Below are positions 1-3,569 of a DNA stretch of 3,569 nt, piece after piece. How positions within the stretch are numbered: position 1 is the stretch's first letter; each line of letters starts with the position of its first letter. The stretch comes from Escherichia phage MS2: the sequence record MT830620.1, one strand, 5' to 3'. The notes under the pieces are model-generated. The model was not told the origin of the DNA, searched no databases, and worked only from the letters and a program-made list of their open reading frames with translations. A program made the position numbers and the translations under genes.

Positions 1-28
1 GGGTGGGACCCCTTTCGGGGTCCTGCTC
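1..28 (+). other. 5' terminal hairpin of the phage plus strand (core stem 6-12 GGACCCC / 17-23 GGGGUCC, loop UUUC 13-16; extendable to 1-28 with G-U pairs)
   Basis: Direct inspection: 5'-GGGUGGGACCCCUUUCGGGGUCCUGCUC folds into a GC-rich stem-loop. Levivirus plus and minus strands both start with GGG and carry a stable 5' hairpin. Confidence 0.8.
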
Positions 29-30
29 AA

Positions 31-36
31 CTTCCT
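31..36 (+). promoter_or_regulatory. Upstream complementary sequence (UCS) that can pair with the maturation-gene Shine-Dalgarno (long-distance interaction limiting A-protein translation)
   Basis: CUUCCU at 31-36 is complementary (including one G-U pair) to AGGAGG at 116-121. A UCS-SD interaction is established for MS2 (kinetic control of maturation-gene translation); the exact pairing register here is my inference. Confidence 0.5.
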
Positions 37-115
37 GTCGAGCTAATGCCATTTTTAATGTCTTTAGCGAGACGCTACCATGGCTATCGCTGTAGGTAGC
101 CGGAATTCCATTCCT

Positions 116-122
116 AGGAGGT
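116..122 (+). promoter_or_regulatory. Shine-Dalgarno / RBS of the maturation gene (AGGAGGU)
   Basis: AGGAGGT at 116-122, 7 nt upstream of the ATG at 130. Confidence 0.85.
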
Positions 123-129
123 TTGACTC

Positions 130-1311
130 ATGCGAGCTTTTAGTGTCCTTGATAAGGAATCCGAGACCTTCGTCCCCTCCATCCGCGTTTACGCTGATGG
201 GGAGGTCGTCGATAACTCGTTTTCCCTAAAATACCGTTCGAACTGGACCCCTGGTCGATTTAACTCGACTGGAGCCAGGACGAAGCAGTGGCACTATCCG
301 TCCCCTTATTCTAGGGGTGCGCTTAGCGTCACATCGGTAGATCAAGGCGCCTATAAGCGCTCTGGGTCATCGTGGGGTCGCCCGTACGAGGAGAAAACCG
401 GTTTTGGCTTCTCACTCGACGCACGCTCCTGCTACAGCCTCTTCCCTGTGAGTCAAAATATGACTTACATTGAAGTGCCGCAGAACGTTGCGAATCGGGC
501 GTCGACTGAAGTCCTGCAGAAGGTCACCCAGGGTAATTTCAACCTCGGTGTGGCCCTCGCAGAGGCCAGGTCGACAGCCTCACAACTCGCGACGCAAACC
601 ATTGCGCTCGTAAAGGCGTACACTGCCGCTCGTCGCGGCAATTGGCGCCAGGCGCTCCGCTATCTTGCCCTAAACGAAGATCGAAAGTTTCGATCGAAAC
701 ACGTGGCAGGCAGATGGTTGGAGTTGCAGTTCGGCTGGCTACCGCTAATGAGCGATATCCAGGGTGCATATGAGATGCTCACGAAGGTTCACCTTCAAGA
801 GTTTCTCCCTATGAGAGCCGTACGCCAGGTGGGCACTAACGTGAAGTTAGATGGCCGCTTGTCGTATCCAGCTGCAAACTACCAAACCACGTGCAACATA
901 TCGCGACGTATCGTGATATGGTTTTACATAAACGATGCACGCTTGGCTTGGTTGTCGTCTCTAGGTATCTTGAACCCACTAGGTATAGTGTGGGAAAAGG
1001 TGCCTTTCTCATTCGTTGTCGACTGGCTCCTTCCTGTTGGGAACATGCTCGAAGGCCTCACGGCCCCCGTAGGATGCTCTTACATGTCAGGAACAGTTAC
1101 CGACGTAATAACGGGTGAGTCCATCATAAGCGTTGACGCTCCCTATGGGTGGACAGTGGAGAGACAGGGCACTGCTAAGGCCCAGATCTCAGCCATGCAT
1201 CGAGGGGTACAATTCGTATGGCCAACAACTGGCGTATACGTAAAGTCACCTTTCTCGATGGTCCATACCTTAGATGCGTTAGCATTAATCAGGCAACGGC
1301 TCTCAAGATAG
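130..1311 (+). CDS. mat: Maturation (A) protein, the pilus-binding, single-copy virion protein; 393 aa
   Basis: ORF 130..1311 (ATG start, UAG stop). The translation (MRAFSVLDKESETFVPS...WTPGRFNST...LALIRQRLSR) is near-identical over its whole length to the MS2 A protein as I recall it. Same position and length (393 aa) as in MS2. Confidence 0.95.
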   Translation: MRAFSVLDKESETFVPSIRVYADGEVVDNSFSLKYRSNWTPGRFNSTGARTKQWHYPSPYSRGALSVTSVDQGAYKRSGSSWGRPYEEKTGFGFSLDARSCYSLFPVSQNMTYIEVPQNVANRASTEVLQKVTQGNFNLGVALAEARSTASQLATQTIALVKAYTAARRGNWRQALRYLALNEDRKFRSKHVAGRWLELQFGWLPLMSDIQGAYEMLTKVHLQEFLPMRAVRQVGTNVKLDGRLSYPAANYQTTCNISRRIVIWFYINDARLAWLSSLGILNPLGIVWEKVPFSFVVDWLLPVGNMLEGLTAPVGCSYMSGTVTDVITGESIISVDAPYGWTVERQGTAKAQISAMHRGVQFVWPTTGVYVKSPFSMVHTLDALALIRQRLSR

Positions 1312-1322
1312 AGCCCTCAACC

Positions 1323-1342
1323 GGAGTTCGAAGCATGGCTTC
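1323..1342 (+). promoter_or_regulatory. Coat gene RBS and initiator hairpin (SD GGAG 1323-1326; stem 1330-1334 GAAGC / 1338-1342 GCUUC with AUG 1335-1337 in the loop)
   Basis: Direct inspection of the inverted repeat flanking the coat AUG. A coat initiator hairpin presenting the AUG is described for MS2; the fold is not computed here. Confidence 0.6.
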
Positions 1343-1727
1343 TAACTTTACTCAGTTCGTTCTCGTCGACAATGGCGGAACTAGCGACGTGACTGTCGCC
1401 CCAAGCAACTTCGCTAACGGGGTCGCTGAATGGATCAGCTCTAACTCGCGCTCTCAGGCTTACAAAGTAACCTGTAGCGTTCGTCAGAGCTCTGCGCAAA
1501 ACCGCAAGTACACCATCAAAGTCGAAGTGCCGAAAGTGGCTACTCAGACCGTTGGTGGTGTGCAGCTTCCTGTAGCCGCATGGCGTTCGTATCTGAATAT
1601 GGAATTAACTATTCCCATCTTCGCAACGAACGACGATTGCGCGCTTATTGTTAAGGCGATGCAAGGTCTCCTAAAAGATGGAAACCCAATCCCCTCAGCA
1701 ATCGCAGCAAACTCCGGAATCTACTAA
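1335..1727 (+). CDS. cp: Coat (capsid) protein, 130 aa including the initiator Met; ends in tandem stops UAA UAG (1725-1730)
   Basis: MASNFTQFVLVDNGGT...KDGNPIPSAIAANSGIY matches MS2/R17-type coat protein. The true start is the AUG at 1335 with the SD at 1323-1326, not the upstream in-frame ATG at 1218 used by the ORF track. RNA-binding residues known from MS2 (V29, K43, T45, S47, R49, T59, K61, E63, Y85, N87) are all present. Confidence 0.95.
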   Translation: MASNFTQFVLVDNGGTSDVTVAPSNFANGVAEWISSNSRSQAYKVTCSVRQSSAQNRKYTIKVEVPKVATQTVGGVQLPVAAWRSYLNMELTIPIFATNDDCALIVKAMQGLLKDGNPIPSAIAANSGIY

Positions 1728-1905
1728 TAGATTCCGGCCATTCCAACATGAGGATTACCCATGTCGAAGACAACAAAGAAGTTCAACTCTTTATGTATTG
1801 ATCTTCCTCGCGATCTTTCTCTCGAAATTTACCAATCAATTGCTTCTGTCGCTACTGGATGCGGTGATCCGCACAGTGGAGACTTTACAGCAATTGCTTA
1901 CCTAA
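1678..1905 (+). CDS. lys: Lysis protein L (75 aa, single-gene lysis), +1 frame relative to coat, overlapping the coat 3' end and the replicase 5' end
   Basis: ORF 1678..1905 translates to METQSPQQSQQTPESTNRFRPFQHEDYPCRRQQRSSTLYVLIFLAIFLSKFTNQLLLSLLDAVIRTVETLQQLLT. This has the MS2 L architecture: a basic/polar N-terminal region, a hydrophobic transmembrane segment and the conserved Leu-Ser (LLLSLL) motif. Position is the same as in MS2. Confidence 0.92.
   Translation: METQSPQQSQQTPESTNRFRPFQHEDYPCRRQQRSSTLYVLIFLAIFLSKFTNQLLLSLLDAVIRTVETLQQLLT
1746..1764 (+). promoter_or_regulatory. TR translational operator hairpin (coat-protein binding site, replicase translational repressor and packaging signal): ACAUGAGGAUUACCCAUGU
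   Basis: Exact match to the canonical MS2 operator: stem 1746-1750 / 1760-1764, bulged A at 1751, G-C G-C upper stem, loop AUUA 1754-1757 (wild-type U at -5). The replicase AUG (1761-1763) lies in the 3' arm and the SD GAGG (1750-1753) in the 5' arm. Confidence 0.95.
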
Positions 1906-3398
1906 GGGATGAGTTGCTTACTAAGCATCCGTCGCTAGGTAATGGTAATGACGAGGCGACCCGCCGGGCTTTAGCTATCGCTAAGCTCCGGGAGGCGAAT
2001 GAGCGATGTGGCCAGATTAATAGGGAAGGTTTCCTACATGACAAATCCTTGTCATGGGATCCGGATGTTTTACAAACCAGCATCCGTAGCCTTATCGGCA
2101 ACCTTCTTTCTGGTTATCGCTCGTCGTTGTTTGGGCAATGCACGTTCTCCAACGGTGCCTCAATGGGGCACAAGTTGCAGGATGCAGCGCCTTACAAGAA
2201 GTTCGCTGAACAAGCAACCGTTACCCCCCGCGCTCTGAGAGCGGCTCTACTGGTCCGAGACCAGTGTGCGCCGTGGATCAGACACGCGGTCCGCTACAAC
2301 GAGTCATATGAATTTAGGCTCGTCGTAGGGAACGGAGTGTTCACAGTTCCGAAGAATAACAAAATAGATCGGGCTGCCTGCAAGGAGCCCGATATGAATA
2401 TGTACCTCCAGAAGGGAGTCGGCGCCTTTATAAGACGTCGCCTCAAATCTGTGGGTATAGACCTGAATGATCAGACGATCAATCAGCGTCTAGCTCAACA
2501 AGGCAGCATAGACGGCTCATTAGCGACGATAGACCTATCGTCAGCTTCTGATTCCATCTCTGACCGCCTGGTATGGAGTTTCCTCCCACCTGAGTTATAT
2601 TCATATCTCGATCGTATCCGCTCCCACTACGGAATCGTAGATGGAGAGACGGTACGATGGGAACTATTTTCCACAATGGGAAATGGGTTTACTTTCGAAC
2701 TAGAGTCCATGATATTTTGGGCTATAGTGAAAGCAACTCAAATCCATTTTGGTAACGCCGGAACCATAGGCATCTACGGGGACGATATTATATGTCCCAG
2801 TGAGATTGCACCCCGTGTGCTAGAGGCACTTGCCTACTACGGTTTTAAACCGAATCTTCGTAAAACGTTCGTGTCAGGGCTCTTTCGCGAGAGCTGTGGC
2901 GCGCACTTTTACCGTGGTGTCGATGTCAAACCGTTCTACATCAAGAAACCAGTTGACAATCTCTTCTCCCTTATGCTGATCATGAATCGGCTTAGGGGGT
3001 GGGGCGTTGTCGGAGGTATGTCAGATCCGCGCCTTTATAAGGTTTGGGTACGACTGTCCTCCCTGGTTCCATCGATGTTCTTCGGTGGGACGGACCTTGC
3101 TGCCGACTACTATGTAGTAAGCCCTCCAAATGCTGTCTCAGTTTATACAAAGACTGCGTATGGTAGGTTACTCGCGGATGCCCGTACCTCGGGTTTCCGT
3201 CTTGCTCGTATCGCCAAAGAGCGAAAGCACTTTAGCGAGAAGCATGACAGTGGTCGCTACATAGCATGGTTCCATACTGGAGGTGAAATCACCGATAGTA
3301 TGAAGTCCGCTGGCGTGCGCGTAATGCGCACTTCGGAGTGGCTGACGCCGGTTCCCACATTCCCTCAGGAGTGTGGGCCAGCGAGCTCTCCTCGGTAG
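1761..3398 (+). CDS. rep: RNA-dependent RNA polymerase (replicase beta subunit), 545 aa
   Basis: ORF 1761..3398. YGDD catalytic motif at nt 2775-2786 (GTIGIYGDDIICP). The sequence MSKTTKKFNSLCIDLPRDLSLEIYQ... matches the MS2 replicase as I recall it; same coordinates as in MS2. The stop codon UAG is at 3396-3398. Confidence 0.96.
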   Translation: MSKTTKKFNSLCIDLPRDLSLEIYQSIASVATGCGDPHSGDFTAIAYLRDELLTKHPSLGNGNDEATRRALAIAKLREANERCGQINREGFLHDKSLSWDPDVLQTSIRSLIGNLLSGYRSSLFGQCTFSNGASMGHKLQDAAPYKKFAEQATVTPRALRAALLVRDQCAPWIRHAVRYNESYEFRLVVGNGVFTVPKNNKIDRAACKEPDMNMYLQKGVGAFIRRRLKSVGIDLNDQTINQRLAQQGSIDGSLATIDLSSASDSISDRLVWSFLPPELYSYLDRIRSHYGIVDGETVRWELFSTMGNGFTFELESMIFWAIVKATQIHFGNAGTIGIYGDDIICPSEIAPRVLEALAYYGFKPNLRKTFVSGLFRESCGAHFYRGVDVKPFYIKKPVDNLFSLMLIMNRLRGWGVVGGMSDPRLYKVWVRLSSLVPSMFFGGTDLAADYYVVSPPNAVSVYTKTAYGRLLADARTSGFRLARIAKERKHFSEKHDSGRYIAWFHTGGEITDSMKSAGVRVMRTSEWLTPVPTFPQECGPASSPR

Positions 3399-3408
3399 CT
3401 GACCGAGG
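3390..3408 (+). other. Hairpin presenting the replicase stop codon in its loop (stem CCUCGG 3390-3395 / CCGAGG 3403-3408; loop UAGCUGA)
   Basis: Perfect 6-bp inverted repeat seen directly; the loop contains the UAG at 3396-3398. Confidence 0.6.
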
Positions 3409-3430
3409 GACCCCCGTAAACGGGGTGGGT

Positions 3431-3495
3431 GTGCTCGAAAGAGCACGGGTCCGCGAAAGCGGTGGCTCCACCGAAAGGTGGGCGGGCTTCGGCCC
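3431..3495 (+). other. 3' UTR cluster of four small tetraloop hairpins: three GNRA (GAAA) and one UUCG
   Basis: Direct inspection: GUGCUC-GAAA-GAGCAC (3431-3446), CCGC-GAAA-GCGG (3451-3462), CCACC-GAAA-GGUGG (3468-3481), GGGC-UUCG-GCCC (3484-3495). Consistent with the highly structured levivirus 3' UTR, which holds replicase recognition elements. Confidence 0.7.
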
Positions 3496-3538
3496 AGGGA
3501 CCTCCCCCTAAAGAGAGGACCCGGGATTCTCCCGATTT

Positions 3539-3569
3539 GGTAACTAGCTGCTTGGCTAGTTACCACCCG
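3539..3569 (+). other. 3' terminal hairpin (10-bp stem GGUAACUAGC 3539-3548 / GCUAGUUACC 3555-3564, loop UGCUUG) followed by a single-stranded 3' tail ACCCG
   Basis: Perfect inverted repeat seen directly. The levivirus 3' end is a terminal hairpin plus an unpaired ...CCC(A) tail used for replicase initiation; here the last base is G. Confidence 0.8.

Follow-up and report, generated by a model that had tools for sequence, protein, structure and literature searches.

A complete MS2-like levivirus genome, almost certainly belonging to a wild, environmental Emesvirus zinderi strain

The window (the whole stretch of DNA analysed here, 3569 nt) is a full-length genome of the family Fiersviridae, a levivirus of the species Emesvirus zinderi. 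Four genes and a series of regulatory RNA signals were located in it, all on the + strand, as follows.

1-129 (+): 5' untranslated region, with the 5'-terminal hairpin at 5-24 (1-28 in the full fold)
130-1311 (+): mat, maturation (A) protein, 393 aa, AUG start; open reading frame, Pfam PF03863 at 671 bits, exact match to QNI21284.1, dN/dS 0.04-0.08
1323-1349 (+): coat-gene initiator hairpin with the AUG (1335-1337) in its loop; fold of 1314-1350 at -9.5 kcal/mol, z = -2.0
1335-1727 (+): cp, coat protein, 130 aa; open reading frame, Pfam PF01819 at 223 bits, exact match to QNI21282.1
1428-1433 (+): 5' half of the Min Jou pairing, GAAUGG, read directly; partner CCAUUC at 1738-1743
1678-1905 (+): lys, lysis protein L, 75 aa; open reading frame, Pfam PF11125 at 129 bits, exact match to QNI21283.1
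1738-1743 (+): 3' half of the Min Jou pairing, CCAUUC, read directly, just upstream of the operator
1746-1764 (+): translational operator (TR) hairpin, exact 19-mer ACATGAGGATTACCCATGT, holding the replicase Shine-Dalgarno sequence and start codon; predicted by identity to be the coat-dimer binding site
1761-3398 (+): rep, RNA-dependent RNA polymerase (replicase beta subunit), 545 aa; open reading frame, Pfam PF03431 at 711 bits, exact match to QNI21285.1
3399-3569 (+): 3' untranslated region, with several short stem-loops, the 3'-terminal hairpin at 3538-3565 and the tail CCCG

The gene coordinates are the same as those of the annotated coding sequences of NC_001417 (laboratory MS2, also V00642), DL16, J20, R17 and ST4, and are identical to those in a published table for MS2-like strains (PMC3499819). 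The order mat-cp-lys-rep, which an earlier note on this DNA had reported, is thus found at the exact MS2 coordinates, as expected of Emesvirus zinderi, and the four Pfam families score 129-711 bits against cut-offs of 25 bits. The lys frame is offset by +1 relative to both cp and rep, which lie in one frame, and the first part of lys lies over the end of cp and its last part over the start of rep, in agreement with the overlapping +1 lysis gene described earlier; its conserved Leu-Ser motif is Leu48-Ser49. The YGDD motif of rep occupies residues 339-342 (nt 2775-2786). Members of a species in the Leviviricetes share roughly 80% or more replicase identity; the replicase of the window differs from that of NC_001417 at 21 of 545 residues (96.1% identity), placing it with Emesvirus zinderi. 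The coat protein differs from the solved MS2 coat structures only at residues 17, 77, 100 and 103 (Met = 1), the changes from laboratory MS2 being G17S, E77Q, S100D and E103A (96.9% amino-acid identity). The remaining mechanically called open reading frames, at 80-229 (+), 1218-1727 (+) and 3168-3566 (-), have no support of any kind.

The coat gene ends in the tandem stops TAA TAG (1725-1730), also present in laboratory MS2, and a third in-frame TGA follows six codons on, so no read-through domain is encoded, as the earlier note had also observed. Qubevirus (the Qbeta type) and the group II GA-type phages have the same family-level plan as the window, a plus-strand RNA of ~3.5-4.2 kb that carries genes for the maturation protein, the coat protein and the replicase. 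The Qubevirus combination of an A1 extension past a leaky UGA and no separate lysis gene is absent, however: the window has three in-frame stops within 27 nt after the coat gene in place of the leaky UGA and A1 extension, and it has a separate overlapping lysis gene. A levivirus contig in IMG/VR of similar size to GA (L014, 3466 nt) is 58% identical to the window in nucleotide sequence and 52% in the replicase.

The operator 19-mer ACATGAGGATTACCCATGT is exact, as claimed beforehand and as in laboratory MS2, with 0 matches expected by chance. With Rfam RF02359 it reaches 60.6 bits (gathering score 40; E = 4.8e-13), and it folds with a bulged A at -5.3 kcal/mol (z = -3.3), spanning the replicase start in the manner characteristic of Emesvirus zinderi. 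In the internal loop of the coat initiator hairpin, position 1329 is C in the window and U in MS2. The same C is found in DL16 and DL1, which also share with the window the AUG start of mat, a codon that is GUG in laboratory MS2. The function of the Min Jou long-distance pairing is known from published MS2 work; six of its Watson-Crick pairs are retained, while position 1744, C here and in most wild isolates but A in laboratory MS2, can no longer form the seventh MS2 pair, U1427-A1744. Automatic duplex prediction chose other registers for this pairing, and the 6-bp GAAUGG/CCAUUC core was read directly instead.

The 5' untranslated region folds with a minimum free energy of -60.2 kcal/mol (z = -5.96; 0 of 200 shuffles as good), and within this fold an upstream sequence at ~29-36 pairs with the mat Shine-Dalgarno region at ~116-123 (AGGAGG). 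The region is the same as in DL16, J20, FrHenna and a German isolate, and the same as in laboratory MS2 through position 127; DL1 carries one extra A here, which shifts its gene coordinates by one base. At the other end, the 3'-terminal hairpin folds at -17.9 kcal/mol (z = -4.9), and the 3' untranslated region is the same as in DL16, DL1 and ancestral MS2 apart from the last base; NC_001417 has a displaced CC dinucleotide in this region that is peculiar to the reference record. The window begins with GGGTGGG and ends with TTACCACCC followed by G. The conserved 3' end of these phages has been given as ACCACCCA (PMC3499819), and with respect to the conserved termini the 5' GGGTGGG and 3' ACCACCC are present, with G rather than A as the last base. 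The earlier description of the ends, 5' GGGUGGG and 3' CCACCC plus one base, is therefore correct with the amendment that the extra base is G where the canonical base is A. Laboratory MS2 has the same termini bar this base, and A stands in this place in all seven relatives whose sequences extend to the 3' end (7/7), DL16 and DL1 among them. The terminal G is probably an artefact of end determination, and since seven relatives have A there, the 3' end given here may differ from the true end of the virion RNA.

Comparison by megablast with MS2-group genomes gave 100% coverage at 92-95.3% identity, and the top matches were all Emesvirus zinderi / MS2; MS2, R17, ST4, J20, DL1 and DL16 span 92.0-95.3%. 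The best genome matches were DL16 (EF108464, 95.3%), DL1 (EF107159, 95.2%) and FrSaffron (94.8%). Identity to the environmental isolates DL16, DL1, FrSaffron, J20, FrHenna, FrBlood and the German isolate is 94.4-95.3%, and identity to NC_001417 is 92.0%. These isolates are mostly 93-95% identical to each other, and the window lies ~5% from its nearest sequenced relatives. In a neighbour-joining tree it lies among the wild isolates, and DL16 is its nearest neighbour in 142 of 200 bootstraps. DL16 has the same length, the same gene coordinates and an identical 5' untranslated region, and differs from the window at 14 residues in mat, one in cp, two in lys and eight in rep. R17 (EF108465) and M12 (AF195778) belong to the same species and have the same gene map and the AUG start of mat, but are 92.3% and 92.5% identical to the window, respectively, and group in the tree with laboratory MS2, outside the window's clade. 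IMG/VR contains a single MS2-group contig, of laboratory type (L013, 92.2% identity), and thus no closer relative. We conclude with near certainty that the window gives, in cDNA sense, the whole plus-strand RNA genome of a natural strain from the environment that belongs to Emesvirus zinderi (the MS2-like genogroup I F-specific RNA coliphages), in the same loose clade as DL16, DL1, J20, FrSaffron, FrHenna and FrBlood. No substantive evidence speaks against this reading.

This is a known and ordinary phage type, and no undescribed system was found in the window. The four proteins are letter-for-letter those of NCBI QNI21282-QNI21285, labelled 'Escherichia phage MS2' and located on a 3569-nt contig; judging by these four exact matches and the contig size, the strain is evidently already deposited in GenBank. 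The earlier note had called the window a complete MS2-like levivirus genome of the MS2 rather than the Qbeta type and no new system, and had proposed comparison with NC_001417 and other Emesvirus zinderi genomes as the check. The 3569-nt length, the MS2 gene map with every listed element present, the four Pfam families, the missing A1 extension, the identities and substitutions from that comparison and the proteins already in NCBI all bear out this reading.

The organism label of the matching NCBI proteins, simply 'Escherichia phage MS2', and the predominance of laboratory populations among the MS2 records of the phage collection leave room for the view that the window is laboratory MS2, whether the reference strain itself, a line evolved by experiment or a derivative made by engineering. 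The identities do not fit this view, as the window is 92.0-92.1% identical to NC_001417, ancestral MS2 and ST4, whereas those three are 98.9-99.6% identical to one another, and evolved laboratory populations score 91.3-92.0% against the window. The alignment with NC_001417 contains 286 substitutions and 4 indel columns; 212 of the 279 coding differences fall at third codon positions, and 46 real amino-acid differences are spread over the four proteins, which accords with the scattered synonymous and few non-synonymous differences noticed earlier. Because most of these substitutions are synonymous and most also occur in wild isolates (from US waters, chicken litter and Germany), laboratory passage or design is effectively ruled out. 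Nor does the window contain an insert, tag or restriction-site scar, its length and gene coordinates being unchanged, and neither a closest relative inside the laboratory MS2 lineage nor a source statement of derivation from ATCC 15597-B1 was seen. The laboratory origin is left with a vanishingly small probability.

The pattern of substitution points instead to natural evolution. Against DL16, 136 of 167 differences are at third codon positions, and dN/dS against eight relatives is 0.01-0.08 in mat, cp and rep. Nearly all differences from MS2 are also present in environmental isolates; the window has just 27 private sites, 26 of them coding, and 20 of those 26 are synonymous. From the 94.4-95.3% identity to environmental isolates, the shared differences, the few private sites and the low dN/dS, the strain is by its sequence natural and not engineered. 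Of the earlier suggestion of a natural or engineered variant other than the reference isolate, the non-reference and natural parts stand, and the engineered part is set aside.

A related possibility is an artificial sequence that imitates MS2, produced by in silico mutation or by a model. Consistent with this, no record in the phage collection searched is more than 95.3% identical to the window, and a 33-mer across the private coat change is absent from metagenome contigs. An artificial origin is nevertheless scarcely credible: all four proteins occur letter-for-letter in NCBI on a 3569-nt contig, the substitutions bear the mark of strong purifying selection, the untranslated regions and operator are untouched, and the few private changes are for the most part synonymous. 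Changes made at random or by a model would not recreate the variants of independent field isolates. With the substitution pattern and the exact protein matches in NCBI both against it, an engineered or synthetic origin was rejected.

The window could also be a recombinant mosaic of several MS2-like strains, for which there is a precedent in the recombination reported for the related JS strains (PMC3499819). The nearest relative shifts along the genome, from J20 or the German isolate (1-300) to DL16 (300-750), DL1 or FrSaffron (750-1350) and again DL16 (2100-3150), and in one triplet test, with DL16/FrSaffron and segment 1134-1553, the permutation p was ~0.02. This was the lowest value among 15 triplet tests, however, and fails correction for multiple tests, while the pairwise homoplasy index gave p = 0.19, 0.87 and 0.99 with windows of 20, 50 and 100 informative sites, showing incompatibility to be independent of distance. 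Because the clade is star-like, with members 93-95% alike, small local swings of the nearest neighbour are expected by chance. Homoplasy is high and may reflect either recurrent mutation or old recombination. No recombination signal was thus detected by the maximum chi-square scans (15 parent pairs) or the homoplasy index, and a mosaic origin, unsupported by either, is very improbable.

As every sequence element involved is conserved, this natural strain should be infectious and should work exactly as MS2 does. The steps of the life cycle are established knowledge for MS2, and phages of this species are characterised by virions of single-stranded plus-sense RNA that enter F+ E. coli by way of the pilus. 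The maturation protein would bind the F pilus and thereby bring the RNA into the cell, where the folded RNA would leave the coat start site alone open. Translation of the maturation gene would be confined to nascent plus strands whose 5' leader has yet to pair with the Shine-Dalgarno sequence of that gene. Ribosomes on the coat gene would break the Min Jou pairing and open the replicase start; later, coat-protein dimers on the operator hairpin would turn off replicase synthesis and begin packaging. The +1-frame lysis gene would be reached by ribosomes re-initiating after termination at the coat stop, and the RNA would be copied from its 3' CCC end by the replicase with host factors.

The genome adds nothing to knowledge of levivirus biology and matters little past bookkeeping; its modest value is as one further data point on the natural diversity of MS2-like phages. 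Phages of this type are in use as faecal-pollution indicators and process controls. In nucleotide sequence, wild strains are ~8% different from laboratory MS2; they keep every regulatory RNA element (here with six Min Jou pairs, not seven), and primer and probe sets designed on NC_001417, as well as operator-based tools, should allow for wild diversity.

There is a slender chance that some of the private changes are both real and functionally meaningful, affecting capsid antigenicity or surface charge, the interaction with the pilus, or the tolerance of the replicase for a non-A terminal nucleotide. The candidates are G17S in the coat protein, at a position in the surface-exposed AB loop, A90T and S362F in the maturation protein, S34C (equivalent to E61D in the lysis protein) and I298V in the replicase, and the 3'-terminal G.

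The window, 3569 nt long with 5' GGGTGGG and 3' TTACCACCCG as its ends, carries four open reading frames, the product of each of which has an exact match in NCBI under the name 'Escherichia phage MS2'.

Genes of the window and their exact NCBI protein matches
130–1311, + strand: mat, ORF of 393 aa, start codon ATG; maturation protein, QNI21284.1
1335–1727, + strand: cp, ORF of 130 aa; coat protein, QNI21282.1
1678–1905, + strand: lys, ORF of 75 aa; lysis protein, QNI21283.1
1761–3398, + strand: rep, ORF of 545 aa; replicase, QNI21285.1

Each of the four matching proteins sits on a single contig 3569 nt long. Since all four proteins match exactly, the genome has already been deposited and is clearly in the public record. 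The earlier note saw here a known model phage and no undescribed system, and the matches uphold it: the window represents a model phage that is well characterised, here as a wild-type variant with an existing public record. The four gene coordinates agree to the base with the CDS annotation of NC_001417 (the MS2 reference), DL16, J20, R17 and ST4, and PMC3499819 lists the same coordinates for every "MS2-like" strain of genogroup I. Length and the mat-cp-lys-rep order bear out the reading of the window as a complete MS2-like genome. The products belong to the four levivirus Pfam families, with scores far above the 25-bit cut-off (Phage_mat-A, 671; Levi_coat, 223; Phage_MS2_lysis, 129; RNA_replicase_B, 711 bits), and YGDD is kept at rep residues 339–342. 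The lys frame is +1 relative to both cp and rep, which share one frame, matching the overlapping +1 lysis gene claimed from the sequence. The 3' end of cp reads TAC TAA TAG, and six codons on the frame meets a third stop, so that there is no read-through extension; the tandem stops were correctly noted, and the window lacks the A1 read-through of the Qbeta type.

The mechanical listing of cp as 1218–1727 arises because the frame is open 5' of the cp start. Site 1329 shows a U-to-C change relative to MS2, by which the UGA closing the cp frame just upstream of the cp AUG is lost, leaving the frame open to an AUG at 1218 (a 169-aa ORF). This C lies in an internal loop of the cp initiator hairpin and is common to the window, DL16, DL1, FrSaffron, FrHenna and FrBlood; no sign of translation of the 1218 extension was seen. 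The mat start (130–132) is AUG in the window, all wild isolates, R17 and M12, and GUG in laboratory MS2 (NC_001417, its ancestral form and ST4); the GUG start looks like a quirk of the laboratory lineage and not of the species.

A megablast search of the window against 50,697 phage records matched 299, all bearing Escherichia, Enterobacteria or Emesvirus names except four labelled only "ssRNA". All of the best 40 of these 299 were MS2 or MS2-like, and 65 matches covered at least 80% of the window.

Whole-genome identity of relatives to the window
DL16: 95.3%
DL1: 95.2%
FrSaffron: 94.8%
J20: 94.6%
German isolate (LT898437): 94.5%
FrHenna: 94.5%
FrBlood: 94.4%
M12: 92.5%
R17: 92.3%
ancestral laboratory MS2: 92.1%
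ST4: 92.1%
NC_001417 (MS2 reference): 92.0%

The comparison with NC_001417 and its group proposed in the earlier note came out as predicted, with MS2-like genomes as the best matches. The environmental isolates are 93.3–95.0% identical among themselves, except for the FrHenna/FrBlood pair (99.4%), and neighbour-joining places the window in their clade, with DL16 as nearest relative in 142 of 200 bootstraps and DL1 in 47 of 200. Judged by its sequence, the window fits into this loose, star-like environmental clade as one more ordinary strain. The sources given for three of the isolates are New Hampshire bay water for DL16, a river in California for DL1 and chicken litter for J20 (PMC3499819). 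All the defining traits of the MS2-like group that sequence can show are found in the window, namely genome similarity, gene map, +1 lys gene, operator and replicase identity (96.1% to the MS2 rep protein); only the 3' terminus does not fit cleanly. To the IMG/VR levivirus contig L014 (3466 nt, GA-sized) the window is only 58% identical. The suggestion of a "natural or engineered variant" distinct from the reference isolate comes down on the natural side: non-reference status is confirmed, natural origin is supported by selection and by shared wild variants, and laboratory MS2 or an engineered derivative is excluded by the 8% divergence from a laboratory lineage that is itself tight (98.9–99.6% identity within) and by the variants that the window has in common with field isolates.

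The scatter of differences from MS2 described in the earlier note is seen as 286 substitutions relative to NC_001417 (plus four indel columns), with 212 of the 279 coding differences at third codon positions; the 167 differences from DL16 include 136 at third positions and 135 transitions. Nei-Gojobori dN/dS against eight relatives was 0.043–0.076 for mat, 0.014–0.056 for cp and 0.027–0.068 for rep. Both untranslated regions are the same as in DL16 save for the last base, and all intergenic variants are known from other wild isolates. The pattern of substitutions marks descent under purifying selection, and neither design nor passage in the laboratory nor mutation at random; this signature, together with the exact NCBI proteins, excludes a synthetic or in-silico sequence. 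Nominal dN/dS for lys is 1.2–3.2 against several relatives, because silent changes in cp and rep alter the L protein through the out-of-frame overlap. Most changes in L fall in the N-terminal half, clustering in the N-terminal third, and a few others (residues 61, 68 and 71) lie close to the C-terminus; such a pattern is expected of an out-of-frame embedded gene and need not imply positive selection.

Compared with the first 11 relatives, the window has 27 private sites, 20 of the 26 coding ones synonymous; at the protein level the private changes comprise mat A90T and S362F, cp G17S, and rep S34C and I298V, with rep S34C and lys E61D due to one base change. Private sites are this few despite ~5% divergence from every relative. 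A recombinant mosaic of MS2-like strains is worth testing, as the nearest neighbour switches along the genome and recombination has been claimed for related JS strains (PMC3499819), but the lowest permutation p in 15 maximum chi-square scans (~0.02) was lost on correction, and the pairwise homoplasy index showed no distance dependence (p = 0.19–0.99). Within the wild clade, ~54% of informative-site pairs are phylogenetically incompatible (window aligned with MS2-like genomes L001–L012). Incompatibility that is independent of distance, with so few private sites, points to saturation, with mutation recurring at a limited set of sites that tolerate change and are mostly synonymous, and not to recombination.

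Nucleotide 3569 is G in the window and A in all seven relatives reaching the 3' end (DL16, DL1, J20, MS2, ancestral MS2, ST4 and R17). Because the terminal A of MS2 RNA is added without a template, this G most likely arose as an artefact when the end was determined or cloned. The terminus reads ACCACCCG, against ACCACCCA in the MS2-like group, where the latter is given as the conserved 3' end (PMC3499819). In the 3' untranslated region of NC_001417 (window 3451–3463) a CC dinucleotide lies ~12 nt away from its place in all the other genomes compared, ancestral laboratory MS2 among them; this looks like an old reference-sequence error, not biology.

The expression scheme can be inferred from conserved elements whose function is established in MS2. 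The 5' leader folds into a terminal hairpin and cloverleaf (z = −5.96) in which nt 29–36 are base-paired to 116–123, the mat Shine-Dalgarno region with its AGGAGG; in MS2 this pairing confines maturation-protein synthesis to nascent strands, and it would do so here. The cp AUG lies in the loop of a modest predicted hairpin (1323–1349) and, as on mature MS2 RNA, would be the only open start. The long-distance Min Jou pairing, which in MS2 shuts the replicase start until ribosomes cross the coat gene, has its core whole (GAAUGG 1428–1433 with CCAUUC 1738–1743), and its disruption by ribosomes crossing cp would likewise open the rep start. Position 1744 is C in the window and most wild isolates and A in MS2, R17, M12 and DL1; the C removes the U1427–A1744 pair, which leaves Min Jou with 6 base pairs in place of 7. 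The exact TR operator reported earlier, the 19-nt ACATGAGGATTACCCATGT, occurs once, at 1746–1764, with none expected by chance, folds as a hairpin with a bulged A, and gives the sole Rfam match in the window (RF02359, 60.6 bits, gathering score 40, E = 4.8e-13). As in MS2, where the operator is the coat-dimer binding site, coat dimers would bind it to repress replicase synthesis and nucleate assembly; the coat differs from crystallised MS2 coat only at residues 17, 77, 100 and 103 (Met = 1), none of which is known to be an RNA-contacting residue. The lys frame is closed by a stop at 1672, just 5' of its AUG, and its product keeps the Leu48-Ser49 motif and conserved C-terminal half, features consistent with lys being reached by ribosomes that re-initiate after terminating at the coat stops. 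A stable 3' terminal hairpin (3538–3565, z = −4.9) is followed in the fold by an unpaired CCC tail, the start site of minus-strand synthesis in MS2 and probably here.

Fragments of MS2 mat, coat and replicase are also filed as "hypothetical protein" (protein clusters such as P0006, P0018–P0025, P0041 and P0044) under Listeria monocytogenes, Salmonella enterica, Staphylococcus aureus, Klebsiella pneumoniae and Vibrio parahaemolyticus. They sit on very short contigs and are probably carry-over of the MS2 laboratory control, not host genes.
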